The position numbers were made by a program, and so were the translations under genes. Source: a virus (taxonomy: Duplodnaviria; Heunggongvirae; Uroviricota; Caudoviricetes). Taken from it: a stretch of DNA of 64,000 nucleotides. This document shows positions 25,290 to 61,361 of the stretch, in pieces (within the stretch, counting starts at the first letter, position 1; each line of letters starts with the position of its first letter). The stretch spans positions 1 to 64,000 of the IMG/VR virus record IMGVR_UViG_2850796239_000011. The stretch is one strand, 5' to 3'. The notes under the pieces were generated by a model. The model saw only the letters and a list, made by a program, of their open reading frames with translations. It had not been told where the DNA came from and ran no database searches.

Positions 25290-25494
25290 GGCGTCTTTAC
25301 CTTTTAGAAAGATGAGCCTGTTCGCACAGAAAAGCCGTCCCCGAGATGGTCGCCACCATATACGGCAATTCTCAGGCTCAGCTTTCTGAAAGACTCGGGG
25401 TTTATATGCGCTGCGATGCGCGGTTTACTGCGGACATATAAAAGCCCCGCAAGTGCGAGGCTCATTAAATGGACTTTGTGATTTGCAAAAAAAT

Positions 25495-25962
25495 TTATTT
25501 CAGGCACTGAGTCCTGATGTACTCCTGAAGCATTCTCAATGCTGTCTGGTCGCTGATGATTCCGTCCCGGATACCGAGAACGTTTCGTCCAGCAACTGGA
25601 GAGAGTTCGACGGTGGCATCATTGCCCATGCCGGAGGCGCTGGAGGTTTCGGCTGAGGATGGCACAGGGCATTTTCCTTTGACGAGCACCCGACCACCAT
25701 TATCAAGCTTGCGCCGAAGAGCATCATTTTCAGCTTTCGCATCAGCTAACTCCTTCGTGTATTTAGCATCGAGTGCATCAGCAGAACGCTGGCGCTGCTG
25801 CATGTCAGTAATGGTTGCGTTCGCCAGCTTCAGTTCTCTTGCGTTTTTGTCGCGCTGCTCTTTGTAGGTAATGGCGTTATCACGGTAATGATTAACAGCC
25901 CATGACAGGCAGACGATGATGCAGATAACCAGAGCGGAGATAATCGCGGTGACTCTGCTCAT
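25495..25962 (-). CDS. Rz: Spanin inner-membrane subunit Rz
   Basis: '[34 protein letters not shown]' nearly identical to the lambda Rz N-terminus; ATGA overlap with the endolysin stop. Confidence 0.85.
25536..25742 (-). CDS. Rz1: Spanin outer-membrane lipoprotein Rz1, embedded in Rz in the +1 frame
   Basis: '[21 protein letters not shown]' lipobox followed by a Pro-rich segment, entirely within Rz. Confidence 0.7.
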
Positions 25963-26492
25963 TGATCTATCCCCCAACAGGCTAATGCGCTTTCCTGGTC
26001 ACGACGAATAACCTGTCCATAGCAGTTATTTGAACGTATGCGGCAATCGCGCCCAACATCTTTTATCCACCAGCGAATCGCCTCGCATGCGCCCTTACGA
26101 TCACCGGCATTCAGCCGCTTATAAAACGTCGACGGGAAACACTTACCGGGGCCAATGTTATAGGGGCAAAATGACGCTATACCCGCTTTTTGTGGTTCGG
26201 TCAGTGGTACTTTAATATTGCGCTCCACCCATGCCAGCGCCTTATCACGTTCAATGGCGTTAACCTGGTCGCATTTTTCCTTCGACAGTTTCATACCGGG
26301 AAAAACGGGTTTACCATCCACCATCGTGGCACCCCGACAGATGGTCCAGATGCCGGAACCATCGCGGTATGCCGTAGTGTGGTTACCTTCTTTTTCATCC
26401 AGAAACTGGTCGAGAATATCAGGCGCAGGCGCACCGATAGCAATCAGTGCCAGAACGGCAGCCGACAGGCCATATCTGATTTTTACGTTCAT
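25959..26492 (-). CDS. R: SAR endolysin (phage lysozyme)
   Basis: 177 aa; N-terminal signal-anchor-release segment ('[18 protein letters not shown]') and lysozyme core. Confidence 0.85.
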
Positions 26493-26605
26493 GGATATTT
26501 ATCAGGATTTATCGGCTTCAAATCCCCGGATATGTTAAATCTTACCTCGCCAGTGATGGGCACTGGCGGGAGGAGGATGTCAATCTGATAAACACAGAGG
26601 TGACT

Positions 26606-26866
26606 ATGGATTACACAAATCTACCAAAACAAACTTTTGCTGATTTAATCGCACTCAGGCAAGCAGTCGTAGCTCTAATCAACTTGTTGCCGGAGAAGGA
26701 AAAGGAATTAGTTAAAGCGCTTCTTAACAGAACTGCCGCCGATTTTTCATCATATCCACTGACAGATGACCTTGCGGACCTTCCTGAATTAATTGCAGCG
26801 TCCGCCATTAAGCTTACTGAAGAGATTTACCCTCCTCAAAAATCTTCACAAAATTCCTGCGAGTAA
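26606..26866 (+). CDS. Hypothetical protein (within lysis-cassette insertion)
   Basis: ATG at 26606 with AGAGG 6 nt upstream; 86 aa; hairpin plus T8 run downstream (~26886-26920). Confidence 0.35.
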   Translation: MDYTNLPKQTFADLIALRQAVVALINLLPEKEKELVKALLNRTAADFSSYPLTDDLADLPELIAASAIKLTEEIYPPQKSSQNSCE

Positions 26867-27344
26867 CTTCAATGCAATAATCGTAAAACGCCGCAAACTG
26901 CTCATCGCGGCGTTTTTTTTCATCTTCAGAAGGAATCAGCACCGACAATTTTTTCTCCAGTTTTTCAATGGGCGATTCAATATCATCTTTTTCTGACCGC
27001 AATGCCGTCGGTGGCGTCTTCAGAGAACCAGTAATTCTTCCCGGTAGCTTTCCTTTGTAGGTTATCCACACATTCTGCGCCTCTAAAATTATGGGGCGCT
27101 TTTCCGGCGACTGCTCATCCCCTTCACATAACCCGGCAGCAACATCCAGGAATACCTGTCTGATTCTCATTCTGGCCGCTGCCTCATAAAACTCCAGCGC
27201 GGCACCTTCAACACGGTCCAGCGAGATGTCCAGGTCAAAAATTTCACCGTCAAAGCGTTTTTTGTCCCGTAACGCTAAAGTTACCGCAACTTTATTCTCA
27301 AAATTGCGGATCCCTTTCACAATCAGTTCATAGTTTTGTGTCAT
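26814..27344 (-). CDS. Hypothetical protein inserted between holin and endolysin
   Basis: 176-aa ORF co-oriented with the lysis genes; no family recognised. Confidence 0.5.
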   Translation of the reverse strand: MTQNYELIVKGIRNFENKVAVTLALRDKKRFDGEIFDLDISLDRVEGAALEFYEAAARMRIRQVFLDVAAGLCEGDEQSPEKRPIILEAQNVWITYKGKLPGRITGSLKTPPTALRSEKDDIESPIEKLEKKLSVLIPSEDEKKRRDEQFAAFYDYCIEVTRRNFVKIFEEGKSLQ

Positions 27345-27348
27345 TGAA

Positions 27349-27564
27349 TTACTCTCCCCGCGCAGCCTTACGCTTGTCTTCTCTTATTTTGAAATACAGG
27401 TTAGTCAGATATGTCAGCAGCCCAAACAGCAGACTCCCCAGCACGCCTATTGCCGCCCACTGAGACGGGGAAACCCTGTCCAGCAACTGCAGGAACCAGT
27501 AGCCCGTTCCCACCGCTGACGTGGTGTATGACACACCTGTTGTGATTTTTTCCATCTGGTCCAT
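27349..27564 (-). CDS. S: Class II holin (S21/EssD-like pinholin) with dual-start motif
   Basis: '[71 protein letters not shown]', close match to DLP12 EssD; Met1 and Met4 ('MDQM') give the antiholin/holin dual start. Confidence 0.8.
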
Positions 27565-27871
27565 ACCCCGTCTCCCGTTATCCGGAAGCTGACAACAATA
27601 AAAAAGCCACCAGTTAACTACTGATGGCTCTGATAACTCATGCAAGCGTCTCAGACGATCCACTGACACTACCGGTGAGTTTAACGATACCTTCCATTTG
27701 ACTGGCTCACTTTTTATGATGATGCCGGTGCATTTATCTCCAGCACCAGACTTTCTATCTCAACGCCATACGTTGCATTTTTGGTAATATCCGTCAGCGT
27801 CAGTGCATTTAGTCCCACTGCCAGACTGTCTTTTATGGCCTGGAATGCCGGGCCAGTACGATGACGTAGTA

Positions 27872-28075
27872 TCACTCCGGCTCAGTTGCACCACTGACCA
27901 CCACATCACCTTCTGCTGCAATCGCCTGCATCAGGGTATAAGGGGTTATGGCCACCGGACTACCAAACGGCTGCCAGCCCTCTTTCAGTTTATGTGTCAG
28001 CTTTTCCGCAAGATCTGACGGCGGCGCCGCCCTGACAACATCATAGTGTTTAAATGCCATGGTTCTTTCCACCAT
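27872..28075 (-). CDS. Small conserved lambdoid protein (DUF1737-like)
   Basis: 67 aa ('MAFKHYDVVRA...LKEGWQPFGSPVAITPY'), upstream of the holin. Confidence 0.4.
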   Translation of the reverse strand: MVERTMAFKHYDVVRAAPPSDLAEKLTHKLKEGWQPFGSPVAITPYTLMQAIAAEGDVVVSGATEPE

Positions 28076-28320
28076 CTAAAAAATAATTCTTTAAAATACC
28101 TGACATGTAATACAGAAAAAGCACAAAACCATACATTAAATAAAAACCTGATTATCAAGCAGATATGCATGGATAAACTACAAGACGAGATATAAACCAC
28201 CCTGCATTTAAATAAACAATAAACAACATCAGAAAAATAATTCTGCTCTATGGTTTACATTCAAAAATATCATTTATACTTTTCAGAACATCACCAGCAA
28301 GGCATAAACAAGGAAACTAA

Positions 28321-28656
28321 ATGAAGTGGATTGTGATTGATACAGTTATCCAGCCATCATGCGGAATATCTTTTTCAGTCATATGGAGTAAAATAAAATT
28401 AATAATCTGGTATCAATCGGATGCTTTCTTACCTCCTGAAAGTATATTTACACTGACTCACACAGGCATCATGCTCAATAACAAAGTGCTACCTGTAACC
28501 ATTTACAACGTAGTACCATTCAATAAAACATTCTGGAATTTAATCAAAAACAGCCAGGAATGCCCTACAAATACAGATAACGTATTGAATGAATGCTTTA
28601 ATAACCGTTGCACTCTGCAAATATGTCCTTATGGACTAAAACAACAAAGTCCATAA
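28321..28656 (+). CDS. Hypothetical Cys-containing protein in AT-rich cargo locus
   Basis: 111-aa ORF, RBS AAGGA 7 nt upstream, AT-rich context; antisense to late transcription. Confidence 0.3.
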
Positions 28657-28693
28657 GGAGTTTACTCACATCTGACAAAATCAATATAAACAG

Positions 28694-28713
28694 CCCCTCC
28701 GGAGAGGGGCTGG
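28694..28713. terminator. GC-rich hairpin (candidate terminator)
   Basis: 'AGCCCCTCCGGAGAGGGGCT' palindrome after the 28321 ORF; T-rich stretch follows on the minus strand. Confidence 0.3.
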
Positions 28714-29031
28714 AGAGTGGCGCTATGTGCCATTGCATGGTGCCGGGTGCCTCCCGGTGAATTCAGTACCAGCACCTGAATCCGCGATTATCCCATATAC
28801 CTACTCGCTGATTGCCCCTCCGCACAGGGGGATTCACCATGCCAGTTTCTTTTAACAAACTCCCCGCAAACCAGACAACAGTCAACCGCCTGAATTGTGA
28901 AGTATTTAAAAATTTCTCCCGCTAACTGATACCCGGCTAACAGTCTGGCGTTTTCTTTTTCAGCAACGGGAAAGCAACAACCCTGTTATCGTGTCGTCTG
29001 CTCTTCCTGATAAGCTAATGGCGGTTTGTGA

Positions 29032-29107
29032 TGGTGGCCCTTGCTGGATTTGAACCAGCGACCTGGCGATTATGAGTCGCTCGCTCTCACCACTGAGCTA
29101 AAGGGCC
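29032..29107 (-). tRNA. tRNA with CAU anticodon, ileX-like (tRNA-Ile2)
   Basis: 76-nt cloverleaf: 7-bp acceptor stem, 'TAGCTCAGTGG' D-arm, 'CTCATAA' anticodon loop, 'GGTTCAAATCC' T-arm, CCA end; close to E. coli ileX. Confidence 0.9.
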
Positions 29108-29140
29108 GGGAGCAGAATAATAACGGTCCGTAATTAATTC

Positions 29141-29170
29141 CGCAATAAAAAACCCGCTCGGCGGCGGGTT
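29141..29170 (-). terminator. Rho-independent terminator (tR'-like) downstream of the late promoter
   Basis: Stem 'AACCCGC/GCGGGTT' with 6-nt loop followed by a T-run on the minus strand. Confidence 0.55.
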
Positions 29171-29217
29171 GTAGAAACTCTTCTAACGTCAGGCATAAAA
29201 CGCCCATAGTTATGACG

Positions 29218-29245
29218 AATTTACCACAGATTCCGGAAAAATCAA
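29218..29245 (-). promoter_or_regulatory. Candidate late promoter PR'
   Basis: Minus strand TTGATT-N16-TAAATT just downstream of Q. Confidence 0.3.
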
Positions 29246-29250
29246 CCTTG

Positions 29251-30072
29251 TTACCTAGTTACCTTTTTTAACTGCCGCTCAGCCCATGCTTCTTCAATAT
29301 CAAACCGGGTCACCAGCGCATCATAGAATTTCTTAACTGTTTTTTCCCATGACGCGCGTGTTATCTGGTTTGTCACCTCGCATATAGCATTAAATGCCTC
29401 CGTTGATGGTAGTCTTTCATAGCCACGACCACCACAACGCTGGCAGTCTCTGATAACAGGCATACCACGTTTTACCGACTCTTCACGATGAATGGCGACA
29501 CCACGCCCACGGCAATCCTTACAGGCGGTGGAAACCTCACCCTTTCCGCCACACTCCGGACAGGCAACTTTTACCACCTCCCTGACTTTTTTCCATTCTT
29601 CCCAGTAAGACGGATACACACCTTTCGTACACTTTGCCCATACCGGCGGCTTACCATCCGGATACTGGACCTTGTTTGTAAAAACTACGCTTTCAATAAA
29701 TTTTTCCCCATAGCAACAAGGGCACTGCTTTTTACTCGCTGCGCTGCGGGCATAATCCTCAAAAGCGTACGAAGCCATAATGCGCATCACTACCGGTTTT
29801 ATTTCTGCCGGAAGTTTTCTCAACGCCGCCACACGATCGCACCGACTGAGTGCATAATCAGCCAGTAATTCTGTTGCCCGCGCCCTGTCATTCATACTGA
29901 TGCCCATTTTCCCCAGGAACGCAGAAAACCCCATCTCAGCCCGATTCTGTGTCATGCCCTGCGCGGCCATCACATCAGTGATACTCAGCGCATCTTTTGA
30001 CGTTGAGGCCGATGCATCGGTCAGGCAAGGGGATTTTGGGGAGTAGTATTTCGGTAAATCTTCCAGTTTCAT
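29251..30072 (-). CDS. Q: Late antiterminator Q (Cys-rich, zinc-binding type)
   Basis: 273 aa with several CxxC motifs; located between RusA and the lysis region. Confidence 0.8.
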   Translation of the reverse strand: MKLEDLPKYYSPKSPCLTDASASTSKDALSITDVMAAQGMTQNRAEMGFSAFLGKMGISMNDRARATELLADYALSRCDRVAALRKLPAEIKPVVMRIMASYAFEDYARSAASKKQCPCCYGEKFIESVVFTNKVQYPDGKPPVWAKCTKGVYPSYWEEWKKVREVVKVACPECGGKGEVSTACKDCRGRGVAIHREESVKRGMPVIRDCQRCGGRGYERLPSTEAFNAICEVTNQITRASWEKTVKKFYDALVTRFDIEEAWAERQLKKVTR

Positions 30073-46560: not shown

Positions 46561-47874
46561 ATGGATAAAGTCAAATATCCAACAGGCGTCGAAAACCACG
46601 GTGGCACATTACGCATCTGGTTTAATTTTAAAGGTAAACGTGTCAGGGAAAATCTTGGTGTCCCTGACACTGCCAAGAACAGGAAGATCGCCGGAGAGCT
46701 GCGGACATCTGTATGTTTTGCCATTCGTACAGGAAATTTTGATTATGCTGCGCAGTTCCCTGACTCTCCTAACCTCAAGGCTTTTGGGGTAAATAAAAAA
46801 GAAATTACGGTGAAAGAACTTGAAGAAAAATGGCTGGATCTGAAACGAATGGAAATCTCTGCAAATGCATTCAATCGCTATGAATCCATTGCAAGGATGA
46901 TGGTTCCGAAGATTGGTGGCAACCGACTGGTATCAGCAGTGACCAAAGAGGAATTGCTGTATATCAGGAAAGATTTGCTGACCGGATACCAAAATCCAAC
47001 AAAAGGTAAAGCTCCAGTAAAAGGACGAAGCGTTGTCACAGTAAATTATTACATGACAACAATCGCTGGAATGTTTCAGTTTGCTGCAGATCACGGTTAC
47101 ATAGAAGCAAATCCCTTCGAGGGAATTAAGCCTCTTAAAAGAGCCAGGGCAGAACCAGATCCGCTAACTCGTGACGAATTTATTCGCCTGATAGATGCTT
47201 GCCGGCATCAGCAGACAAAAAACCTGTGGTCATTGGCTGTGTACACAGGAATGCGTCATGGTGAACTGGTCTCCCTGGCCTGGGAAGATATCGATCTGAA
47301 AGCAGGAACAATTACTATCAGGCGCAATTATACGAAACTCGGTGAGTTCACTCTACCTAAAACTGAAGCAAGTACAAACAGGGTTGTGCATCTTATCCAG
47401 CCCGCTATCAGTGTCCTGAAAAATCAGGCTGAAATGACAAGACTGGGTAAGCAGCACAACATCAAGGTTCAACTACGTGAATATGGACGTTCAGTAAATC
47501 ATGAATGTACTTTCGTATTTAACCCCCAGGTGGTTAGAAAAAGCAAACAGGTAGGTTTTATCTACAAGGTAGATTCCATTGGCGACTCATGGGAAACAGC
47601 CATTAAACGTGCAGGCATCAGGCATCGAAAGGCATACCAGTCACGACACACTTATGCGTGCTGGTCATTATCTGCCGGAGCAAATCCAAGCTTCATTGCC
47701 AGCCAGATGGGGCATGCAAGTGCCCAGATGGTGTTCAATGTATACGGAGCATGGATGACTGACAGCAATGCAGAACAGATCGCAATGCTGAATCAGAAGC
47801 TGGCAGATTATGTCCCAATGATGTCCCATGGTCACCAAAGTGACACAAGAGGCTTATTAAAATCAGTGAGTTAG
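46561..47874 (+). CDS. int: Tyrosine integrase
   Basis: 437 aa; catalytic region with conserved Arg...His-x-x-Arg...Tyr pattern ('HTYACW...AQMVFNVYGAW'). Confidence 0.9.
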   Translation: MDKVKYPTGVENHGGTLRIWFNFKGKRVRENLGVPDTAKNRKIAGELRTSVCFAIRTGNFDYAAQFPDSPNLKAFGVNKKEITVKELEEKWLDLKRMEISANAFNRYESIARMMVPKIGGNRLVSAVTKEELLYIRKDLLTGYQNPTKGKAPVKGRSVVTVNYYMTTIAGMFQFAADHGYIEANPFEGIKPLKRARAEPDPLTRDEFIRLIDACRHQQTKNLWSLAVYTGMRHGELVSLAWEDIDLKAGTITIRRNYTKLGEFTLPKTEASTNRVVHLIQPAISVLKNQAEMTRLGKQHNIKVQLREYGRSVNHECTFVFNPQVVRKSKQVGFIYKVDSIGDSWETAIKRAGIRHRKAYQSRHTYACWSLSAGANPSFIASQMGHASAQMVFNVYGAWMTDSNAEQIAMLNQKLADYVPMMSHGHQSDTRGLLKSVS

Positions 47875-47977
47875 CTTTTAATACCCGTCATGTTAACTGT
47901 TAATGAGGGCATTGAGTCGGGGGCTGGCAGCATACTGCGCAAGCACAGTGGCAGCCACATTCTGCACGTTATGCCTC

Positions 47978-49210
47978 CTAGAGTTTCACACTGATATCCG
48001 ACACATCCAGAACCGGAATCTCATCTATCCCGAAAGTGACAGCCGTTGTCCATGACGAACCGTCACGGCTCACAGTAAGGCCCAGAATATCAATATGTTC
48101 CGGATCGGTTTTGTAAATGCCGGCATAGTAGCGCCCGGCAGAGACAACAGAGGCAACCCTTGCCCGCAGACCACCATCTGTACCATTAAATGCGTCCAGC
48201 ACGGATTGCTGTACCTGTCGGGTAATATCTGAAGGCAGGTAGTCACTTTTTTTCAGCGTCACACTGACATGCAGACTGACGGGTTTGAGTGTCTGCCAGC
48301 TGATCACGTATTCAGGATACGGCGGATCGTACTCCTTATCTGCAACAGTGAACGTTGTGTTGCCATTCATATCAATACCCGGCGGAGCCTTACGCCAGAT
48401 GGCCGCCGCGATATCTGCCGGGCTGCCGCCGTACACGCCAACATAAAGCGAACCGGGTGTTAATGGATACTGACTGACTCCGGCTTTTTGTTCTGTTTTT
48501 TTCGGATTATGGGTGACGTAAACATCCACCACGTTTTCTACCGTGGAGAGTATTTCACCCCGGATGGCTTCCAGAATATTCCGGGCATTACGGGCAACTG
48601 AATTACGTCGGCGGTTTTCAAAGTCCGCACGGGTTTCCTCATCGCTGCCCGGCACACCGGCACTGGCGTTAGTGACACCTGACCAGCCAGGTATTGCCTT
48701 ATAAATTTTATTCAGCGTCCCCACAGGACAGCCGACGGGGCCGGTGGACAAATTCAGAAATACCGCATCAACCTGCCCTGATGCGCCGATAGTGACGTCT
48801 GACTGACTGACATACTTATAACCGGCCTCATCCTGCGCCATACTGCCCGCCGGGATCAGCGTGCCAACCAGCCCGGTACAGGTCGCTGTTACTGTCGTAC
48901 CTGTGGCCCCGCGGCGCTCCAGGAAATAAATCCTGCCTATTGCATCCTGAAAGCGACCACTGGAAAAGTCAGGGTTGATCTGGTTAACGATATACAGCAA
49001 CTGGTCGTTTTTATCCGCAATAATGGCGCTTTCGCTGGATGCAAGTTGTCCCTGCGGACTGCTCAGACTGGTACTCATGGCCCCGCCCAGCGCCGCCGAA
49101 AAATCAGCAAGCCTGCCGCTCAGAATATCCGCTTCATCCGGCACATTCAGCCCGCGATCCGAAATCTGTACAGCGGGCACTGCGGTAGAAAAAGATTTAT
49201 TTTCACTCAT
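47978..49210 (-). CDS. Baseplate J-like protein (myovirus-type prophage remnant)
   Basis: 410-aa ORF following GP46-like and spike genes; last gene before the lambdoid int end. Confidence 0.65.
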   Translation of the reverse strand: MSENKSFSTAVPAVQISDRGLNVPDEADILSGRLADFSAALGGAMSTSLSSPQGQLASSESAIIADKNDQLLYIVNQINPDFSSGRFQDAIGRIYFLERRGATGTTVTATCTGLVGTLIPAGSMAQDEAGYKYVSQSDVTIGASGQVDAVFLNLSTGPVGCPVGTLNKIYKAIPGWSGVTNASAGVPGSDEETRADFENRRRNSVARNARNILEAIRGEILSTVENVVDVYVTHNPKKTEQKAGVSQYPLTPGSLYVGVYGGSPADIAAAIWRKAPPGIDMNGNTTFTVADKEYDPPYPEYVISWQTLKPVSLHVSVTLKKSDYLPSDITRQVQQSVLDAFNGTDGGLRARVASVVSAGRYYAGIYKTDPEHIDILGLTVSRDGSSWTTAVTFGIDEIPVLDVSDISVKL

Positions 49211-49563
49211 AGCAATACCGTAAAAATGTCATTATTGGTATCTGTAATACGCAGCACACCTGTTACTGTCCGGGTTTGATCAGCTGTGACCTGGCAGACA
49301 GCGGCGCTCACGGTCGGCAGTTTAAGTGCTTCCTGTTGCAGAGTGGCATTCACCAGTTGTGTGCCGGGCCAGTGTCCGAGGATGCGTGGCCAGTAAGGTA
49401 TGCCAGCCGTTGAGTCGTACCAGCACTCCCCCAGAAAAGTACTGCACGCACACGCCACATCCTGAGCTACCGCATGGGGATTATCAGTAATGGCAAGATT
49501 TCCGGTATCATCAAGCAGGATATCCCATGTCCCGGTGTCAAGAAGAAGTGATCGTGACTGCAT
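49207..49563 (-). CDS. GP46/gpW-like baseplate protein
   Basis: 118 aa, coupled between spike and J-like genes. Confidence 0.55.
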   Translation of the reverse strand: MQSRSLLLDTGTWDILLDDTGNLAITDNPHAVAQDVACACSTFLGECWYDSTAGIPYWPRILGHWPGTQLVNATLQQEALKLPTVSAAVCQVTADQTRTVTGVLRITDTNNDIFTVLL

Positions 49564-49575
49564 GTTTTCTCCTGT

Positions 49576-50253
49576 TTACCGGGGTCCCTGCGTGGTTGAG
49601 CCGCCGGACTCAACGCCGCCGTGAACGTGGTTTCCAAAATCAATACCCCCGATGTTCGAACCGCCGGAAAGCCTGGACTGCCCGGTAACGTCAAGCCCCT
49701 TACTGACGGCGGTATCGCCGTTCAGCGCAATTTGTGGTGAATTAACGGTGAAGCTTTTCGGCGCATTAATCACACCCTCAGGCGCGGATATCTCCACTTT
49801 CCAGGGAGATACAATCCGTATCTGGTTGTCATCAAATACCACAAACTGGACGGGATCACCGTTGAGCACGCCACCCAGCCAGATGGCATCAGCATAATTA
49901 TGGGTACGCTTTGATCCCGGCATCGCAGCCTGACGCGTGGCTTTTACCGCACTGATATCCCGATCGCAGATGGCAAGAAAACCGATATCCCCCACATGTG
50001 GCGGCATAATCACCGCATTACCGCCCCCCTGTAGTCGCCATACGGGAATGTTATAAATCACCTCATGTTCAACCGGGGAACCGTCTGCTGCAACGCCCAT
50101 TACCATCGGTCGGGCCTCAATAAATCCCTCTTCCACGGCTACCACCCGTCCCAGAGTGATAAACGCATGACGTCCGAGAAACTGCCGCAGCATAAAGTCC
50201 TGTGCATTGATTTCGCTGTTCACGTCTGTCGGGTTACTGAGTGGTTGTGCCAT
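49576..50253 (-). CDS. Baseplate spike / assembly protein V-like
   Basis: 225 aa; Gly-rich C-terminus ('NHVHGGVESGGSTTQGP'). Confidence 0.6.
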   Translation of the reverse strand: MAQPLSNPTDVNSEINAQDFMLRQFLGRHAFITLGRVVAVEEGFIEARPMVMGVAADGSPVEHEVIYNIPVWRLQGGGNAVIMPPHVGDIGFLAICDRDISAVKATRQAAMPGSKRTHNYADAIWLGGVLNGDPVQFVVFDDNQIRIVSPWKVEISAPEGVINAPKSFTVNSPQIALNGDTAVSKGLDVTGQSRLSGGSNIGGIDFGNHVHGGVESGGSTTQGPR

Positions 50254-51103
50254 TTTCTTCAGCCCTCATCATGGTACAGTTGGAACTCCACGGACCGCCC
50301 ACGGTTCGCGAAGTAATGGTGTGTATCACCCCTGTGATCGTATAATCGCCCGTCATATCAGGCAGTGACGATTCCAGATGCGCTGGCCTGCCAGTAAAGA
50401 GATCGGGGCAGAATATCGTGGTGGCGCTGAGTCCGGTCATGGTGTAAACCGGATAGCCAGTCAGTCCGTGATCCGGCGAAATCAGTACCGGCGGAATATT
50501 CCGGTTCTGCCCTTTCGGCCAGATGGTGACTTTCTCCACATTCCCCAGATCAATGTTAATATCGGCGGCTGAAGCGACATCCAGCATTTGTTGTACAACA
50601 TTACCGGAAAAATGCGGGTCAGACAGACTGCGGCTGACCCCCTGGTTTTCAAATCCAAGCCCGACAGTTGACGCCAGCGCACGGATAATATCTGCAACCG
50701 CAACATCGCCCTTTGCGCTGAAATCTGCCGCCGGCTGATTACGCAGATTAAAATGAATCTGTCCTGTCAGAATGAGCGGAATATCCGGCGCCTGGTTGTA
50801 GTCGGCGTATGCATCAGTAATATCACCTTCAAAAATAAGCCGCCCGTCGGCCCACAGCCGCATTTTATTTGCGGTACTCTGCTCCTGTCGCCACACACCG
50901 CGCCAGCTTAAATTCGTCATATGCGCCGGTGACATTCCCCAGATATACAGCGTGATTTGTGTACCAGCCACCCCTCCATATACGCCAATACTGGCAAAAC
51001 AGCTTGCGTCGGTAATGGTCAGCATATTGCCCTGGCCATTACCAAACGTTCGTCCGTCTGAAAGAGTGAACTCCACCGTTATTTTACGTTGTCTGTAGCT
51101 CAT
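50234..51103 (-). CDS. Tail/baseplate protein (hub-like, putative)
   Basis: 289-aa ORF in baseplate module. Confidence 0.45.
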
Positions 51104-51402
51104 ATCAGTTCCTCAGGTAACAGCCAGTAGAGCCGGTACCGGGATCCGAGCCCCCGCCAGTCAGGGTCACTATTCCCCTCCGTGTCGGTAAAAAACAGGT
51201 CCCCCTGAAACGGCAGGTATCCGTACCGGACAATCCGGTTATTATTCAGACACAGCACGCCATACAGGCACGGTTCACCATTAACAATGATATCGATATA
51301 CATCCCCGTAGTACGCTGATTCAGGCGAATGGTGCAGACCTGAGCGCCCAGTGTCACCGTAAACTGCTGGGCTTTAACGGGAGATAAAACAATTTCCAGC
51401 AT
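51100..51402 (-). CDS. Tail protein (putative)
   Basis: 100-aa coupled ORF. Confidence 0.4.
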
Positions 51403-52112
51403 CAGGTGATCCCCCTGTTCGTGGCGCTTCGTCTGTCAGCGTCTGACGGTTGTGTCACCGACGCCGTAACTGACTGCGTTTTAACCGATGCGGCCCCTTT
51501 TGCTTTATCGTTGTCCGTGGGAGACGACTTATCCGTACTTCCCACTGACACCTCTCCTGTATTCATTACGGTCTGAAATACCGCAGTAACCGTCAGTAAG
51601 GTCGGACCATTATTACTTCGCATTCGGTAGTCATATTTCACAAGGTCGCAGGATGTCCATGTCTTGTCCGGCGTCTCAATATCGTAGAGTCCTGCCGTGG
51701 TACGCATCCTTTCAAGCGTTTCCAGCACATTCGTCCGCGAGGTGGTGGAAAAATTTGTCAGGTTCGGGACGGATCCGGAAAAGGCCGTCCACCCCTCTAC
51801 AGTGAAAGTCACATGCAGTTCCGGCGATCTCTGGATTTTATTAAAGGTGGTATAAGCCCCCTGCTCCACGGGGACGGTGGAAACAGAAGCCTCCGCGCCC
51901 ACCTCAACGACAACAAAAGAATCCGGGGAGAAAGGTTTGCCACCCTTCTGATGGGCACCTGCCGGATCATTCCGTGCGTAATAAATACCGAATGACGGTG
52001 CCAGTACACTGTTAATGAGTCCCAGGACACCGCCGCCACGAACTGCACTCAGTACGTTACTTTCACTGAGCGAAAAGTTATTCAGGGAAATATTATCGAA
52101 AGAAAAACTCAT
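51402..52112 (-). CDS. Tail protein downstream of tape measure (putative)
   Basis: 236-aa ORF. Confidence 0.45.
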
Positions 52113-53599
52113 CCTGTTACCCCGCTGGAATAAACCGACACAAGCGCCGAATTCGTGATACGCCGACGTGCGTCATCGGTAATACCCTTCACATTGTCCG
52201 ACGTTGTGGTGACATTCAGTGTCCCGATATGCGTGGTTTCCGTTACGGTGGACTGCGATACAGGCGCAGGATGGCGCGACCGTATGGCCATTGCCGCACC
52301 CGGATAAGGCAGGTTCGCCAGCACCCGCGGAATATAGTTGCGGGTCTCCTCCGGAGCAGCAGCCAGTCCCTTACGCTGAACATTTCCCTCTCCCCAGTTA
52401 TATGCCGCCAGAGCCTTAGCCAGATCGCCATGAAAAAAACGTATCAGGCCACCAAGTTTTCTCGCGGCGGCATCAGCGGCTTTTTCGGGATCAAAGGCAT
52501 CGTTCCCCTCAGACCAAATTCACTGGCCGTCTTCGGCATGAACTGAAACAGTCCCATCGCACCAGCAGGTGAGACGGCAAACTGATTACCACGGGATTCG
52601 GTGATCGCAACGCTGCGCAGCAGTCCGGGCGGCAGGTTATATTTTTCCTCCAGTTGAGACAGTTTCGGTTGCAGCCAGCCTAACAGGGCTTCCCCGGTCT
52701 TCGTCGGTCGCTGGCGGTTTTGCATGGCATTACCGAGTTTTTCCTGCGTCGCACGCATACCCTGTAGCCAGGATTCACCGAAGGCTGCTTCCCTCCCGGT
52801 TGCCTGAGAAGCCTGAGTATCCAGCATGCCCTGCTGCCATACTGTGGGTGATTGTGCCCGGGTGATGTTGCCAGGCTTTTCTCCGGCATCCAGTTTTGTC
52901 TGATACGTCTCCATCTCTTTCTTATTGAAAAAGAAAGTCCCGTCTGAAGCCCAGAAAAAACCATGTGAATCCAGCCAGTCCTTATTTTCCCTGCCAACAA
53001 TGGATGTCAGTAATCCGTCAACAACCGGGTAAAGCGCCGTTATCGCAAAAAGAAGGCCTCCGGGGCCACTGAGGGCTTTTGTCAGCCCCCCGCACCCATG
53101 ACGCCACTTTCAGCCCGATCAGCGTAATAATGGCATTCTGCCAGCCCCCCAGTTCTCCGGCAGCCTTATTCGCCAGGGAGGCCACTGACTCAACGTCATT
53201 CAGAAATGTGGTGATAAACCTGTTCACTTCCTCCGGATGTTGCTGCATCCAGTCACCGAGTGTCTCCAGCCAGTGGCTGAGCTTCAGCGCGTACGGCATC
53301 AACGCGGTGCTAATCGTCATCCCGATGCCGGACCAGGTCTGATCGAGCTCAACAAGCTCTTTTCGTAGCTTACGGGCCAGCGCTATACGCCCCGGCGTAA
53401 CCTGCGAACGGGAAGTAAATTCGTCCACATCTTTCAGCGCATGACCGGAGCCAAGAAACTGCTGTCCGGCATAACTGAAGCCCAGCGCGTTGCCGTAGGC
53501 AGTTTGTTCGGACTTTGTCAGTCGCGGAAAAATAACCGCCAGCTTGCGCATGATGGCTTCAGTGCTGTCAGTATTTAAATCAACACTAGGCTGTGTCCC

Positions 53600-54115
53600 T
53601 TAATTACGTAAGCGTTGATAAAAGAGTCGGATGCAGCCCAGTTTCACCATCGCCAGGTAATTTCTCGCCGTTTTGTCGTAACGCGTGGCGATGCGGCGAT
53701 ATTCTTTCAGCCGCCCAAAGCACCGTTCAACGACATTACGATTGCGGTACGCATCACGATCAAGCTGTGCACGTCCATCCGATGCCATTTTCTCATTTGA
53801 CTTTCGGGGGATTACTGCCTTTATACCGTTATTTTTCAGCTCGTTGCGCAATGCGCGCCCTGAATACGCTTTATCAGCCAGTACCGCATGTCCACGGCGT
53901 TTCATGCTGCCGTTCTGACGCTGAACGCCAATCCCGTCCAGAAGTCGTTGCGCGAACTGGCTTTCATGAGCTTGTCCGGGGCTTAGCACGATATTTAACG
54001 GGAGGCCACTTCCGTCTGTTGCCAGATGGATTTTGGTGCCAAAACCGCCGCGAGAGCGACCCAGCCCATTATCTCCGTCGATATCGGGATGTTTTTTTGA
54101 GCACCGGCGGCACAT
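53600..54115 (-). CDS. IS5-family transposase OrfB (DDE domain), -1 frame relative to OrfA
   Basis: 171-aa ORF 'GLGRSRGGFGTKIHLATDGSGLP'; overlaps orfA across 'CAAAAAAAC' (54092-54098). Confidence 0.7.
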   Translation of the reverse strand: MCRRCSKKHPDIDGDNGLGRSRGGFGTKIHLATDGSGLPLNIVLSPGQAHESQFAQRLLDGIGVQRQNGSMKRRGHAVLADKAYSGRALRNELKNNGIKAVIPRKSNEKMASDGRAQLDRDAYRNRNVVERCFGRLKEYRRIATRYDKTARNYLAMVKLGCIRLFYQRLRN

Positions 54116-54444
54116 TTCAGCGCCCGGATATTACTGCCATCCAGCGCGGTGGCAGACCAGTCAATAAAGCCGTTTGCATCAAGTAGCGAAAGCAACCTGT
54201 TGAAAATAATATTAATCACGCCTGACTTTGACCATCGGTTAAAGCGGTTATAAACAGTTTTCCATGACCCATATCGTTCGGGTAAATCGCGCCATGGTGC
54301 ACCGGAACATAACACCCAGAACATGCCATTGATGATTTTACGGTGCTCAGCCCATGGGCGTCCGGCCCGTGGTGTGGCGGGTTCAGGAGGTAACAGGGGC
54401 TTGATGATGGTCCATGCCTCATCGGGAAGGTCGTAGCGAGCCAT
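53995..54444 (-). CDS. IS5-family transposase OrfA (N-terminal domain)
   Basis: 149 aa 'MARYDLPDEAWTIIKPLLPP...GAPWRDLPERYGSWKTVYNRFNRW'. Confidence 0.7.
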   Translation of the reverse strand: MARYDLPDEAWTIIKPLLPPEPATPRAGRPWAEHRKIINGMFWVLCSGAPWRDLPERYGSWKTVYNRFNRWSKSGVINIIFNRLLSLLDANGFIDWSATALDGSNIRALKCAAGAQKNIPISTEIMGWVALAAVLAPKSIWQQTEVASR

Positions 54445-55031
54445 AGTTCAATATGTTGTGTAAACAGACAGTTACTATAGCTCAGATGATTAAGGGACAC
54501 AGCCTAATGCCCGCCCTGGCTGCAACCTGAAACAAATCCTGTAACACAGGATCAAAGGACCTTCCGGCTCTGAAGGCCGCTTTTGCATTTGCAAGCCGGG
54601 AAAATGCCCCAGACATTTCCCCTTCATCAACATTATTTGCCCGCGCAGCCCGTAACCATCCGTCCAGATTTCTGGCCTTCATGCCAAAAGCATCAGATTC
54701 CACGGACAGACGGTTCAGATCACGGGCAAAACCTGTTACCAGGTTCTTCAGCCCCCCCAGCGTCAGACTGACACCCGCAAGAGCCAGAATCTCGCTACGG
54801 ATCCCTGAAAAAAAACGGGACGCCCGTTTCCCGGCATCTTCCATTCGACGGGCCGTTTTATCAGCATCTTTTCCGGTTTTTTCCAGTGATTCACTGGTTT
54901 TCTTCTGTCCCTGACTGAATGTGTCAGCGACACCTTCCATCACCGTCGTGAGCCGGTTAAGGGCAGCATGTACTGCCTGTTCCCCGGCAGTAAAGTCCCT
55001 GTCATCAATCCCGAGGGACAGAACAAGCTCA

Positions 55032-55273
55032 TCAAGTACCTGCGCCATTTCTGTTCTCCTGTATCACCTGTTCGTTATGGGCATCCACATGAATTATTTC
55101 CAGCAGATCCCATAAGTCCTGCACACCAAGGACAGAATCCAGTTCAGCTTTTGAAGCCTTACCGGAGGAGATAACGGTCGCAATGGTACGGGGAACATTA
55201 ACGTAATCCACCACCCCGAACGGTCTGTCGGGGTCGAGATAACGCGGGGGGATATCTAGCTGACGACGGTAGC
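55032..55273 (-). CDS. -1 frameshift extension of the tail assembly chaperone (GT-like)
   Basis: Heptamer T_TTT_TTC at 55274-55280 (minus strand) near the 3' end of the 134-aa ORF; -1 frame open from there to the stop at 55032. Confidence 0.5.
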
Positions 55274-55660
55274 GAAAAAATCCACATGCAGCTTAAAGAC
55301 CTCCGCACGCAGATTAAGACGGGTAATGATTTCTTCAATATCCTCTTCAACAAGCGGTCTCCGGATGCTGCGTTTTTTCGGATCGGGAACAAACTGCACA
55401 CAGTCCATCATTTCATCCATCAACGGACGCGCCTCATCAGGCGGAATTTTCGATAATGCTTTCAGCCCTTCAAGGGCAAGCGCAGCCATCCCCAGACTAC
55501 GAACATCATCCGGTAACTCCACGCCACCACGCCCCATTGCCATAATGGCACGCATCGCCCACCATTCCGCCTGTAAGGCAGACATTTCGGTAAGATGAAA
55601 TACCTTGCCCTTATCCCGTCCCTGACCTTCAATAGTGATAAATTTCTCTTTACGGGCCAT
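55256..55660 (-). CDS. Tail assembly chaperone (G-like)
   Basis: 134-aa ORF between tube and tape measure. Confidence 0.55.
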   Translation of the reverse strand: MARKEKFITIEGQGRDKGKVFHLTEMSALQAEWWAMRAIMAMGRGGVELPDDVRSLGMAALALEGLKALSKIPPDEARPLMDEMMDCVQFVPDPKKRSIRRPLVEEDIEEIITRLNLRAEVFKLHVDFFATVVS

Positions 55661-56106
55661 CAGTTAAAAACCTCCGGAGTAATGGTTTCCCACTCAATAA
55701 CCGCCTGCCCTGGCTGCAACGTACGAGCTGCATCAGGCAGCGCTTTCCATTGTTTGAGTACGCCATTCACGCAGGTATATTTACGGCCAATCGCCGGAAG
55801 CAGGACGACAGCGTTACAACGGAATACAGCCCGACTGGCCCGGGATGTGGTTGACCAGGTATCAAAAATATCCCGGCTGGGGGAATCCGGCATGATATGA
55901 AACGTCTGGATAATGTTGCTGTACACAAATCCCGCGGACAGTTTACCGTCAATACCGCGGGCAGTTTCCGCCAGTACCAGTGGATCGGTGCCATAAACGT
56001 TATCTGTTGCAAATCCCTGAAGTCGTACGCCGGAGGGATACAGATTATTCACTGTCAGCGTGATAATGGCATCCGCCGCAGTGATGGTGTTGTTGTTACC
56101 CGACAT
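55660..56106 (-). CDS. Tail tube protein (putative)
   Basis: 148-aa ORF directly downstream of the sheath gene. Confidence 0.6.
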   Translation of the reverse strand: MSGNNNTITAADAIITLTVNNLYPSGVRLQGFATDNVYGTDPLVLAETARGIDGKLSAGFVYSNIIQTFHIMPDSPSRDIFDTWSTTSRASRAVFRCNAVVLLPAIGRKYTCVNGVLKQWKALPDAARTLQPGQAVIEWETITPEVFN

Positions 56107-57591
56107 TTACTGGACCTCCGTGGATGCAATAACAAGTTTCTGGATACTACCGCCGTCACAGTACCAGAGCGTACAGGACGGACTGCTACGGGTTGCCCGC
56201 AAAGAGGGAAGCATATCGCCGATATACAGGTAATAGCCGGTGGCAAACAACGTTGAAGAAACATCTGCCCCCACAACATTGTTAATCTGTTTCTTCTGCG
56301 CCTCCGTCAGTGTCACCCCTTCACGGATCCCTCCCCAGCGTTTGTACTGCTGGATAACGTCACTCATTGACGCTGCAACCAGCGCCCGCCCTTCATTGTT
56401 GTAGGGGATCGTCTGGTTTGACTTGAATAACGCGATCACCGCCCCCTGCAAACTGGCATTCAGCCAGATTTGCCCGCAGAAACTGTCCAGCCATTTAAAA
56501 TCACCGGTAATAGTGCCATCCGCCCAGTAATCTTCCACCACACTGTTTTCCGCATATTTTCCGTAGAAATTGTAACCTGCGGCGATCAGCGCATCATAAT
56601 CGCTGCCACTGGTAACATCAGCGGCCAGCCCCTCATACTCGCGGAACTTGAATGATACACGCCCCTCTGGTCGGACAAAATCAAGGCACGCTGCATACCC
56701 CAGTACCGCTGCAGCCCGGTTACCATCAGTCGCGAAAACAGGTACAACAGAGCTGTAGTTATTGACAGCAATTATCTGGTAAGCGATGTGTTTAGTACTG
56801 CCTTTTACTCTGGCGTTGCCGCTGGTTGTCCATGCCACATAAAAGTAACGCTTGCCCTGCCCGTTTGCCCATGCAGAAAACGCCAGGTGTTGCTCGTCAG
56901 TGACCTCAGATACCGTGGAAAAACCCGCCCATTGCTGGGAAGCGGCCTTAATGGCTGCCATTGTGTCAGGGACATCAGATACAGGCGCGCCCCGGGATAT
57001 CACCGCACCGGTGTTACTGGTCATCTTCAGGAGTTCTGCTGCCGATCCACTGCCGAACGTTATCGTGGTACTCCCGGGTTTCGCACCGGCGACAGTAATG
57101 ACAAAAGCATTCTGTGTGGTATCGAATACCACTGTAGCCACTGCTGCGGTCAGCGCTGTCTGTAGTGCCGTTGCAGCAGCGGCGAAGCTGGCGACACCGT
57201 TAAAATTCACTTCAATGCTGACGCTTTTCCCGTTAATACTCAGCATCAGCGTGCCGGAAAGTTTTTGTAGCTGTTCAACAGTCGCGCCCTTAAACGAACC
57301 GCTACGTAACCAGGCCGCCGATGGGGCAGGACTGAAACGGGAAAACAACAATTGCCCCGGCGTCCTGGTGGCATTTTTGAAGCCCTGGAAATAAAGCTGA
57401 GCGCGTGCGTACTCATCGGATAATGCACCAAAATACGCGGCCACATCATCCGGAGAGGAAAACGGAACCACAGTGCCGACCGGAAGTAACGGATTACTGG
57501 TCAACAGCAGGCCGTTAAGATCAACGGCATTACCCGCCACAGCCAGCACACCGGGATTTATCTGTACATCTTTACTGAGTGGAATTGGCAT
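56107..57591 (-). CDS. Tail sheath protein
   Basis: 494-aa ORF with sheath-like composition, upstream of the tube gene. Confidence 0.75.
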
Positions 57592-58117
57592 TATCAGCCT
57601 CCGTTGTCCGGGTGATCACGTTGTCAAAAAACATCAGGGAAGTTGTGACCACAGGGTTAATCTGCATCTGAATATCAAGCGTCCAGCGCGGTTCATACTG
57701 TTGCTGACCGTTGGGGAATGTGGTGTTAAAGGGCTCTGAGCAATACAGCGGGGAAATCAGCCCACCGCCCTGCCGGAAAAGCCGTACGGAAAATTCAGAC
57801 CGGAAAAGCGTTGCCAGCACCTGCGCGTTATCTGCCGCGTGAGGGCCGTAGAAATCAAGCTGGCAACGCCATTTTGTGGTACGGGTGATATGCTGAGAGC
57901 CCTCACCAGCCTGCGCTGGCGCAGAATATGCCACTACCGCAGTGGATAATCCGGTAACATCAATGCCCGTCATGGTGATGAAATTCCCCTGAGGCATCGG
58001 GACCTGGTTCTGCTGCGTTCGTTCAATCCCGGCATCAGAAAAAAGCCCCCGGAGATAATCACCGAGGGCCTGATAAAGAGCGCTTTCCGTAACGGAGAGG
58101 GTCACACCTGAAGGCAT
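57572..58117 (-). CDS. Virion structural protein (putative)
   Basis: 181-aa coupled ORF. Confidence 0.4.
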
Positions 58118-58467
58118 ACAATAACCCTCGTCCAGTCAGGCCAGATTTCCGGTACCTCAATCACCAGCCACGTTTCATCGCCAATAACAAATTTATCGCC
58201 TCCCTGTTGCCGGGCACGGTTAAGCCCGCACCAGTTACCATCGGTATACAATGTGGCGAAAACTCCCTGCTGGTTAAGATTATCAAGATGACGTAAATCA
58301 GCCTGGGTGACAGCCTGCTTTTGCACCCTGACGGAAACCGGATCTTCATACTCAGGTACGCGGGAATAATCTGCCTGCTGTGTACTCCCGCGGGAACGAT
58401 AAACCAGCGCGTCTGTAAAGGGATTTACCCGACGTACTGCGCCGGAAACAATACCGTGAAAGTTCAT
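58102..58467 (-). CDS. Virion structural protein (putative)
   Basis: 121-aa coupled ORF. Confidence 0.4.
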   Translation of the reverse strand: MNFHGIVSGAVRRVNPFTDALVYRSRGSTQQADYSRVPEYEDPVSVRVQKQAVTQADLRHLDNLNQQGVFATLYTDGNWCGLNRARQQGGDKFVIGDETWLVIEVPEIWPDWTRVIVCLQV

Positions 58468-59048
58468 TTTTTGCCCCCGTCTACAGAATAATCAACGCTG
58501 TCCATCATATGTCCGGTTTCAATAAGCGGGTTGTTAAAACCCTTTTGCCGGGCAGTGGATGCAGCGTTGGGCGGACTTTCCCAGTCGCGAACAGACATCT
58601 GCAACTGCCCTTTGATATGTTCTCCCATACACACCAGAGCGGTCGCAGTATCAAAATCATTCGCCCGTAATAAGGTCGCCATTTTTTCGCCCCATTCGGG
58701 ACTTTTATGTTCGATCATCTTACGGAAGAACGGACGGGGGGGAATGGTGACCGTGTGCTCAGGAATAACCACATCCTGAACAAAATTCCCTTTACCGGCT
58801 TTGACAAAGCGGTGCCCGGTTTCTCCCGTTTTTTCGTTATAGCGAAAGTGGAGCGTCTGCTCACGGGCGGGTATGACCGCTCTTCCACCAAACTCCTGAA
58901 CTGCGGCAATATAAGCCACTGACGTACCGTCAGGGTAAGTTGCTCCCTCAAGAAAACCCACTTTGAGTTTTTTACCCAATGAAAGGTTCGCGGCAACCTG
59001 TTTCAGCTTCTGCCGGAACTGTTTGCCACCTGTGACTTTATTTACCAT
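58464..59048 (-). CDS. Virion morphogenesis protein (Mu G-like)
   Basis: ORF trimmed to 'MVNKVTGG' (ATG 59046-59048); 194 aa. Confidence 0.6.
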
Positions 59049-59496
59049 CGACGCCCCTCCCGTATCCCCGGTAATAATGCCCCGGATATCGCGAAGGTGA
59101 CCCCCCGGAATGATACTGCATTGAGCGGTATGGCGCTGTCGCCTGCCAGTAGTCAGCACCCCAGGGGGTCTGGAGATACCACCACGACGCATCATTACTG
59201 CCGCTATTATCCACCGATACCGATACAGAACCTTCCGACGCACTGGTGATACGCCCCACCAGACCAGCCTGCCCGTCTCTCCCGTTTCCCAGCCCCCGCA
59301 ATGCGCACAGATGCGCAACCAGCAGGAACAGAAGCTGTTCCCGCTCCTTCAGGTCGGTAACCGGACTGTCGTCCGTGTTATCCAGGTACAACGCGGTCGC
59401 CTGGTTAAACACCGCCGTCAGTAGCTCCGGTGTCACCGTGGAAAACTCCGGGTACAGACTGACAAACATCCGACAGTCAAACGTCACCGTACCCAT
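59038..59496 (-). CDS. Head-associated protein (DUF1320/gp36-like, putative)
   Basis: 152-aa ORF. Confidence 0.4.
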
Positions 59497-59501
59497 AGCG
59501 T

Positions 59502-59840
59502 TTACTCCTGAGGTTTACCCATCACTTCATCATTGCGGTTAACGCCCGGAGCCGGATTTTTCTGCGGCAGCGGTTCAAGGCCGGATTTAACGGCTTTCTG
59601 CTCCGTAGCCTGCGAGACTGCACTGTTCGCCTTATCCTGCGCAAAAATAACGCCATTTTTCACATAAGGTTGCTGTCCGTGCTCCGCCAGCCAGGCGTCA
59701 AAAAACACCTTATCGACCTGCGTCAGACCATAGCCCCCACAATTTTAACCGCGTTATTCCGCCAGCCTGCCACCTGAACCCGTTTCTGACCCACTTCCAG
59801 CACCAGACCGTTCGGCAGTTTGCAGCCCACTGTTACCATT
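59502..59840 (-). pseudogene. Small head-module gene, frame broken at a homopolymer
   Basis: ATG 59838-59840 overlaps the capsid stop (ATGGCTGA); runs 41 codons then continues as the 68-aa ORF in the -1 frame; restored if the C5 run at 59734-59738 were C6. Confidence 0.45.
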
Positions 59841-60878: not shown

Positions 60879-61360
60879 TATTTACTCCAGGTACTGATCT
60901 TAATGACTTCTTTTGCCGCCGCAGCGCTGGCAACGGAAAACCAGGTTTCGACAAACCCCGCCATCGAGGTGCCAGCCGCCCCCGTGGCTATCTCCCCGGT
61001 GGCCAGTGAGGCAAATACTTTCTGCCCGATCGTCGCAGTAGTGGTGGTCAGCGCCCAGAAATCCCCCGACACCATCAGGGTGCATTCACGCCCCGGATAA
61101 ATGGTGTTCGAGTCCCCGGCCAGCCATTCCACAATGGAAGCCTGCCCGTCACGAGGAACAAAACCCGCCGGTGCGCCGACCCCCTTATTAGCGGCAACAC
61201 CTTTGGTTACCCAGGCAAACCGGGCAATTACCAGCCCGTCAGGGCCGGTAATCAGCCCGCCATCTCCCGCCACATACGAGGCATGAGGGTTAGCACTGGC
61301 AAACGCCCCCGGAATACCCGGTGCCGGGTACTGGTTCATGTGTGTCTGAAAAGTATTCAT
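60878..61360 (-). CDS. Capsid decoration-like / structural protein (putative)
   Basis: 160-aa Gly/Ala-rich ORF upstream of the capsid gene. Confidence 0.4.
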
Positions 61361-61361
61361 A

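Follow-up and report, generated by a model that had tools for sequence, protein, structure and literature searches.

The window analysed here is a 64,000-nucleotide stretch of viral DNA (Caudoviricetes; IMG/VR record IMGVR_UViG_2850796239_000011, positions 1 to 64,000), and this report concerns the spacer between the holin gene S and the endolysin gene R in the lysis cassette of its lambdoid prophage. S (27349-27564) encodes a 71-amino-acid (aa) S21-type class II holin, or pinholin, and R (25959-26492) encodes a 177-aa RrrQ-type lysozyme; both genes are on the minus strand. The spacer is 856 bp long (26493-27348) and contains two open reading frames (ORFs), one of 176 aa that is co-oriented with the lysis genes and one of 86 aa, here named orf86, that is convergent to it. 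A previous inspection of the letters only (the sequence-only reading) had noted a stretch of about 0.85 kb between holin and endolysin, and its extent and all of its coordinates were confirmed.

The 176-aa ORF (26814-27344, minus strand) was identified as a long form of ydfR. Its start codon is located 4 nt past the holin stop codon, and its Shine-Dalgarno sequence, GGGGAGAG, is formed by the final holin codons. The protein matched Pfam DUF1327 (PF07041) with 136.2 bits against a cut-off of 25 (E 4e-40), with aa 1-112 aligned to profile positions 1-92/93. The match to phrog_2091 spanned the entire protein (E 1.6e-103). The exact 176-aa protein was found on 463 contigs, where its NCBI name is 'YdfR family protein'. 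By all of the sequence and position criteria tested, this gene is a member of the YdfR/DUF1327 family, and the sequence-only reading was wrong in assigning it to an unrecognised family. Only 73 cluster representatives of the family were found among 1.84 billion proteins, which makes it a very narrow one.

The known forms of YdfR share a common core of aa 1-112, followed by divergent C-termini, and their lengths are 103 (K-12), 114-116, 176, 183, 211, 268 and 296 aa. In the AlphaFold2 model of the window protein, aa 1-73 (27126-27344, minus strand) form an N-domain of three beta-strands and a long helix with a predicted local distance difference test score (pLDDT) of 65-85. The remainder was below 50 and was modelled as helical in the C-terminal extension. 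The model is that of a soluble protein, a beta3-alpha domain plus helices, and contains no transmembrane or hydrophobic segment. The N-domain is 77% identical to aa 1-74 of K-12 YdfR. No structural match was found for YdfR, nor any membership in an RNase E-inhibitor or toxin-antitoxin family.

Residues 113-176 (26817-27008, minus strand) constitute a mosaic C-terminal extension. The window ydfR corresponds to the 183-aa form minus 21 nt in frame (seven codons, GSVADLN-like; at 26955/26956 of the window, compared with 3476-3496 of locus L002), and the 183-aa form is the commoner of the two. In-frame indels of several sizes were observed in the extension across the 176-, 183-, 211- and 296-aa forms. 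The extension ends in a RRDEQFAAFYDYC..V..RN motif, which was conserved at the protein level despite diverged DNA, for example in the 296-aa form. Since the indels are in frame and the terminal motif is kept at the protein level, the extension is taken to be coding. A BRCT identity for aa 113-176 was considered and was judged to be due to chance. The sole profile hit was the BRCT domain of human PARP1 (E 6e-4, 67 residues), Pfam gave no BRCT match in YdfR, the low-pLDDT model is helical there, and in-frame indels of 7 to at least 28 residues fall inside the aligned stretch, unlike what would be seen in a compact domain. The alignment of a 3128-aa G2F-repeat protein (P0192) to YdfR aa 7-58 was treated as spurious.

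The YdfR family is heavily recombined. The extension module was also found fused to an unrelated N-terminus (P0161) and to other C-terminal domains (P0166), and in one protein (P0111) a ydfR copy was fused to an upstream ORF. Three proteins of 173-187 aa (P0108, P0114 and P0127) carry the holin domain PF04971 and DUF1327 in one chain. These chains are probably frameshift or assembly errors, because the holin and ydfR genes occupy different frames in the window.

The convergent gene orf86 is located on the plus strand from the ATG at 26606 to 26866 and overlaps the 3' end of ydfR by 53 nt. A Shine-Dalgarno sequence, AGAGGTG (26596-26602), was read from the sequence in front of it and was conserved in six of eight diverged loci, with one or two base changes in the other two (L014 and L007). 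A terminator-like hairpin (26885-26916) with a 10-bp stem begins 19 nt past the orf86 stop codon and is followed by a T8 run that extends to 26920. This hairpin is situated inside the 3' coding region of ydfR (KKRRDEQFAAF) and folds on both strands, with -14.6 kcal/mol on the plus strand (z -3.1) and -18.8 on the minus strand (z -2.4). Its stem was invariant in the eight loci, and in two of them one C interrupts the T-run. The ribosome-binding site and the hairpin with T8 that the sequence-only reading had ascribed to the 86-aa ORF were thus both recovered.

The orf86 protein gave a full-length match to phrog_2572, and in related loci it is annotated by the Prokaryotic Genome Annotation Pipeline (PGAP) as hypothetical protein WP_001306174.1. 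Only 18 homologues were found in 5.8 billion proteins, all from E. coli except one truncated Salmonella remnant, and the gene was present in 294-314 of 5426 complete E. coli genomes. AlphaFold2 modelled the protein as a three-helix bundle (pLDDT 71.5); it is acidic, soluble and predicted to be cytoplasmic. No informative structural or family match was found for it. The DUF1823 label that orf86 homologues carry in PhiR phage records was rejected, the best match being at E 0.024 and about 13 bits against a cut-off of 25.

The orf86 frame was open in all eight diverged loci, which differ by up to 16 substitutions, and the other plus-strand frames were full of stops. For this gene a comparison of frames by BLOSUM62 was more useful than the ratio of nonsynonymous to synonymous rates (dN/dS). 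The orf86 replacements were conservative, with a mean BLOSUM62 score of +0.12, and of the three antisense frames two had means of -1.0 to -1.4 and one a mean of -0.38. An antisense ORF of 65 aa inside orf86 (26611-26808, minus strand) was rejected as a real gene and is probably spurious, as its replacements were non-conservative (BLOSUM62 -1.0) and its start codon was lost in at least one of the eight loci. This ORF starts 5 nt past the ydfR stop codon and is open in nearly all variants. Insertion sequence (IS) elements of the IS3 family and others were present in the ydfR-orf86 slot of L019 (1742-2955), L027 (3477-4505) and L051 (3607-3984), and the L027 copy joins a transposase ORF to the C-terminal half of orf86.

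The slot downstream of ydfR was surveyed by script in about 125 fetched loci. Roughly half of them have a convergent ORF between ydfR and R, and this ORF mostly abuts or overlaps the 3' end of ydfR. We refer to these ORFs as cargo. At least five cargo families occupy the slot, with products of 86, 90, 104-106 (gp06 of Stx2-converting phage 86; Stx, Shiga toxin), 70 and 210 aa. Examples of the four families other than orf86 are found at L056 329-601, L110 968-1600, L049 3817-4131, L132 3182-3502 and L130 3964-4176. Among the complete E. coli genomes, 1112 have the 90-aa cargo, 90 the gp06 type and 132 the 210-aa cargo, which PGAP leaves unannotated. No homology among the cargo families was detected by BLASTP or by hhalign with single and family profiles (all probabilities below 1%), and they gave no Pfam match and only chance-level PADLOC matches (E >0.01). 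The 'helix-[LI]P-helix' look that the cargo proteins seem to share is an impression only. The 90-aa cargo showed a clear coding signal, with 9/6/22 differences at the three codon positions and a dN/dS of 0.21. The corresponding counts were 41/31/66 for the gp06 type and 21/17/57 for another count among the families other than orf86, with dN/dS of about 0.2. The forms of ydfR without cargo are those of 103, 104, 112, 116 and 296 aa and a second 114-aa class, which has a 50-nt gap before R.

The most distant relatives of the window YdfR are proteins of 72-99 aa that consist of the N-domain only and are 31-44% identical to it. Some of them are named by NCBI as Yersinia proteins, and the N-domain is the only part of YdfR retained in these Yersinia relatives. 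In 11 of 11 loci examined, the N-domain-only gene lies inside a lambda-like tail operon, co-oriented with the tail genes, and is followed by a convergent partner ORF of 74-110 aa. In L135 and L136 an identical pair occupies the site between tail genes I and J; in L137 its site is that between M and L. DNA alignment showed that about 755 bp are near-identical between L135 (2475-3222) and L137 (2475-3222), with unrelated flanks. Because the near-identical pair is present at two different tail-operon sites, the DUF1327 gene and its partner must move as a cassette. The pairing was also kept over deep divergence: L022 and L103 share 70% identity in the partner protein and 46% in the N-domain. A scan of genome contigs for distant YdfR relatives found none.

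The Yersinia cassette begins with a ribosome-binding site, the DUF1327 gene, a hairpin and the convergent ORF (99 aa) with about 150 bp upstream of it. Then come a plus-strand hairpin with T6 and the ribosome-binding site and start codon (ATG) of the late gene that lies next. The hairpin after the DUF1327 gene would serve as the terminator for the convergent ORF. Four terminator-like sites were found in the cassette, compared with 0.5 expected.

The S-ydfR junction was detected in 3290 of the 5426 complete E. coli genomes and the direct S-R junction of the DLP12 type in 3876, so the S-ydfR-R and direct S-R layouts are about equally common. In ∼60-75% of complete E. coli genomes, a prophage lysis cassette contains a gene of the YdfR family; K-12 and Stx phages are among the carriers. 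Every lysozyme gene found behind ydfR in the fetched loci was of the RrrQ type (111 of 111). Among plaque-forming phages, 2H10, PhiR63_1 and the PhiR5/PhiR12 series (including PhiR5_1) share the arrangement. The spacer is a common, already catalogued and annotated accessory slot of E. coli prophage lysis cassettes. The sequence-only reading had called it an insertion, and part of this stood: the DNA is extra relative to the direct S-R junction of phage 21 and DLP12, and its relatives behave as a portable cassette. A plain insertion into a P21-type cassette does not account for it, because the lysozyme is a different allele (RrrQ type, 33% identical to RrrD). The same reading had named, as the finding that would contradict it, the presence of these genes with a known function in most related cassettes. 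Most related cassettes of this type do carry the gene, and no known function came with it. None of the roles that this reading had suggested, a lysis regulator, a superinfection-exclusion factor or a defence gene, received a PADLOC, NCBIfam or structural match, and the presence of the domain in tail operons speaks against a dedicated lysis role.

On this evidence the spacer is probably the form that a portable accessory cassette of two parts, located in lambdoid late operons, takes in E. coli lysis cassettes. The anatomical part of this explanation is very likely correct. In the mechanism we propose, the Q-antiterminated late transcript would supply YdfR along with S, R and Rz, since no promoter of ydfR itself could be detected, its Shine-Dalgarno sequence lies in the holin codons and it starts 4 nt past their stop. 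The mosaic C-terminal extension of YdfR would be dispensable. The cargo, here orf86, would be a gene of the moron type with transcription of its own, most likely active in the lysogen, and with its terminator embedded in the 3' end of ydfR. The antisense orientation would keep cargo transcription from reading into the lethal endolysin gene. The Q proteins of lambdoid phages modify RNA polymerase so that it ignores terminator hairpins, and during lytic growth the Q-modified polymerase would pass through the hairpins of the spacer. Neither ydfR nor orf86 would be required for lysis as such. For orf86 as a moron expressed from the prophage, we consider the chances about even.

The activity of YdfR itself can be approached through the K-12 homologue, which, like T4 Srd, binds the N-terminal catalytic half of RNase E (PMC13232886). 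In two-hybrid assays, residues 1-72 of K-12 YdfR were enough to bind RNase E (Rne) 1-597; when the full-length protein was purified as Strep-YdfR, Rne 1-598 and DNase-resistant nucleic acid/RNA came with it (PMC13232886). This binding is the only biochemical property reported for the family. The binding stretch overlaps the sole part of YdfR that AlphaFold2 folds with moderate confidence. YdfR may therefore have an accessory function late in infection, with RNA or RNase E and not the membrane or cell wall as its target, and it may protect the late mRNA, which would bear the untranslated antisense-cargo stretch. We put forward an RNase E role for the window protein tentatively, as a possibility that falls short of even chances.

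Several observations weigh against the two-part cassette and the mechanism proposed for it. PGAP treats the ydfR copy as an incomplete pseudogene and flags it as 'incomplete, missing C-terminus' in all RefSeq loci examined. The promoter scan detected no consensus sigma-70 promoter upstream of orf86, the best manual candidate being TTTATC-N17-TATGTT (7 of 12 matches, conserved in the eight loci), and the Yersinia partner ORF likewise gave no consensus promoter. The dN/dS of orf86 was 0.3-0.75 and that of the control frame was similar, so this coding signal is weak and not discriminating. The commonest ydfR classes, the 116-aa form and the 103-aa form of K-12, are without cargo, and YdfR therefore cannot exist solely to serve cargo. 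N-domains and cargo families reassort freely, which disfavours a specific protein partnership between YdfR and its cargo. Overproduction of K-12 YdfR altered few transcripts (PMC13232886). The evidence on RNase E was obtained with a 77%-identical homologue, by overexpression and in two-hybrid assays.

Some of these observations would also fit a spacer made of decaying recombination debris, with the 176-aa ORF as a truncated YdfR remnant and orf86 as a chance ORF. The PGAP flag on ydfR, the fact that PGAP leaves orf86 unannotated in the window-identical locus L001, the negative promoter scan for orf86, the indecisive dN/dS and the IS insertions in the slot all point in this direction. We regard decay as very unlikely nevertheless, given that orf86 stayed open with conservative replacements in all eight diverged loci, that the indels of the YdfR extension are all in frame and its C-terminal motif is conserved at the protein level, that both ORFs have full-length matches to PHROG families of their own, that the sister cargo ORFs are clearly under purifying selection and that the arrangement is found in viable phages. 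Another explanation takes ydfR and the convergent ORF as a two-gene prophage unit for defence, exclusion or toxin-antidote function, in which the cargo is the effector in the lysogen and YdfR, or antisense pairing of the 3' ends, controls it upon the lytic switch. The pair travels as one cassette and was kept across the divergence of L022 and L103, the 3' ends overlap by 53, 35 or 4 nt in a way that recalls oop-cII and type I toxin-antitoxin pairs, and a diverse, fast-changing cargo beside a conserved gene is typical of defence hotspots. Such a unit is nonetheless quite unlikely: hidden Markov model searches of PADLOC-DB v2 gave no match for YdfR176 or orf86, and the other cargo gave no PADLOC hit either; the cargo families are unrelated and N-domains and cargo swap partners; many ydfR copies are without cargo; and the cargo proteins are soluble and helical, not small membrane toxins.

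It is also unlikely that YdfR is a dedicated lysis-timing regulator of the pinholin and the signal-anchor-release (SAR) endolysin, that is, a cytoplasmic factor that acts on the cytoplasmic tails of the holin or on SAR-endolysin release in the manner of P1 LydB or P2 LysA/LysB. The constancy of the neighbourhood speaks for this function, as ydfR in E. coli directly follows an S21-type holin except in a few contig-end loci, the RrrQ-type lysozyme follows it in all 111 loci, and its translation start is right at the holin stop codon. In addition, K-12 ydfR was flagged for envelope integrity in a published screen, as far as this is reported where the screen is cited in PMC13232886. The deletion cassette may, however, have caused this phenotype through polarity on rrrQ. 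The N-domain relatives in the Yersinia tail operons are far from lysis genes, so the association is not restricted to lysis. YdfR lacks a transmembrane segment and gave no match to holin, antiholin or lysis-regulator families in Pfam, PHROG or NCBIfam, the holin retains a dual-start antiholin motif of its own, and direct S-R cassettes without ydfR are equally common.

The portable two-part cassette can be extended to a more far-reaching proposal, which we consider rather unlikely. It would be a cargo platform, with the S-R interval as its site in E. coli and the M-L or I-J interval in Yersinia, with YdfR as a partner that binds RNase E or RNA and with prophage-expressed cargo for exclusion, defence or anti-defence. 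YdfR would then compensate for or control the antisense cargo; it could do so by shielding the late mRNA that the cargo interrupts, for instance, or the cargo transcript could be its target. A full-text search of the literature turned up experiments on YdfR in one paper, a mention of DUF1327 in one other, and no description of the cargo slot. The arrangement in the window is ordinary and known, and the cargo platform is possibly undescribed. This by-product, in which a conserved gene on the late strand and an exchangeable antisense cargo move together as a cassette, is of more interest than the arrangement in the window. With a mosaic gene, a slot for at least five unrelated antisense genes and a mobile Yersinia pair, a 'hypothetical protein' becomes a defined and testable object. 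Should the cargo act in exclusion or defence, or should RNase E prove to be modulated by YdfR at a late stage of infection, a new accessory layer would be added to the lysis and late operons of lambdoid phages.

The holin matched Pfam PF04971 (Phage_holin_2_1) with 110 bits, is 82% identical to EssD of the K-12 prophage DLP12 and retains the dual-start motif M1..M4 (MDQMEKI); PGAP labels it 'class II holin family protein' in the identical locus L001. The lysozyme matched Pfam PF00959 (Phage_lysozyme) and has a SAR-like N-terminus and an E-8aa-D-5aa-T motif. Downstream of it, the Rz spanin gene (25495-25962, minus strand) matched Pfam Phage_lysis and is called 'lysis protein' by PGAP, and the Rz1 lipoprotein gene (25536-25742) is embedded within it. 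A strong hairpin (CCTCGCCAGTG-ATGGG-CACTGGCGGGAGG; 26545-26572) lies between the start of orf86 and the start of R. It folds on both strands, with z of -5.7 on the plus strand and -4.2 on the minus strand, and its core stem is conserved. In three related loci, a G>A change leaves pairing (as G-U) only in the minus-strand RNA, and for this reason the hairpin may be part of the late transcript, ahead of R. In Rfam, the region 25300-28400 gave only a chance match to GcvB (E 0.58).

Upstream of the holin gene are a DUF1737 gene (27872-28075, minus strand) and a region with few ORFs (28100-29250), in which a single 111-aa ORF is found on the plus strand (28321-28656). A tRNA-Met gene is located at 29032-29107 (minus strand), and the near-identical locus L001 has four tRNA genes there instead. 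A 273-aa ORF with Cys-rich motifs (29251-30072, minus strand) is probably the Q antiterminator. Beyond the lambdoid prophage, a second dense block of minus-strand ORFs (about 47000-64000) may be another prophage.

Among known systems, the closest is the essQ-ydfR-rrrQ cassette of the K-12 prophage Qin (YdfR P76160), which likewise has a class II holin, a DUF1327 gene 4 nt past its stop codon and an RrrQ-type lysozyme. In Qin, YdfR is 103 aa long, its gene overlaps rrrQ and there is no convergent ORF; the window adds the 64-aa mosaic extension and 321 bp downstream that carry orf86. In DLP12, in contrast, essD is directly followed by rrrD. The Stx2-converting phage 86 (gp05-gp06) has the same order as the window, with S, a YdfR family gene (268 aa), a convergent 104-aa ORF and R. 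It differs in its cargo, phrog_1853 as compared with phrog_2572 in the window, and in the C-terminal domain of YdfR.

Morons of the lambda type include bor, located downstream of Rz, lom in the tail operon, and gp15 of HK97. In layout the cassette resembles them as extra late-operon DNA that is absent from close relatives, with its own terminator and an antisense, insulated arrangement. Absence and mobility were both seen: DLP12 has no insert, orf86 is present in about 300 genomes compared with 3290 for ydfR, and the Yersinia pair occupies two sites. For orf86 a terminator of its own was found and a promoter of its own was not. Classical morons have no conserved late-strand companion gene such as ydfR, and in this they differ from the cassette, as they do in having a promoter, of which none could be identified here.

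P1 LydB, P2 LysA/LysB and T4 RI are, like ydfR, non-essential genes embedded among holin and endolysin genes. They share no homology with YdfR, which is without a membrane segment and whose domain is also found in tail operons. The two ORFs of the window overlap by 53 nt and share a hairpin inside ydfR, and their transcripts may overlap at the 3' ends like those of type I toxin-antitoxin and oop-cII pairs. The pair includes no small hydrophobic membrane toxin of the type I kind. T4 Srd, T7 gp0.7 and phiKZ Dip are, like K-12 YdfR, small phage proteins reported to bind RNase E.

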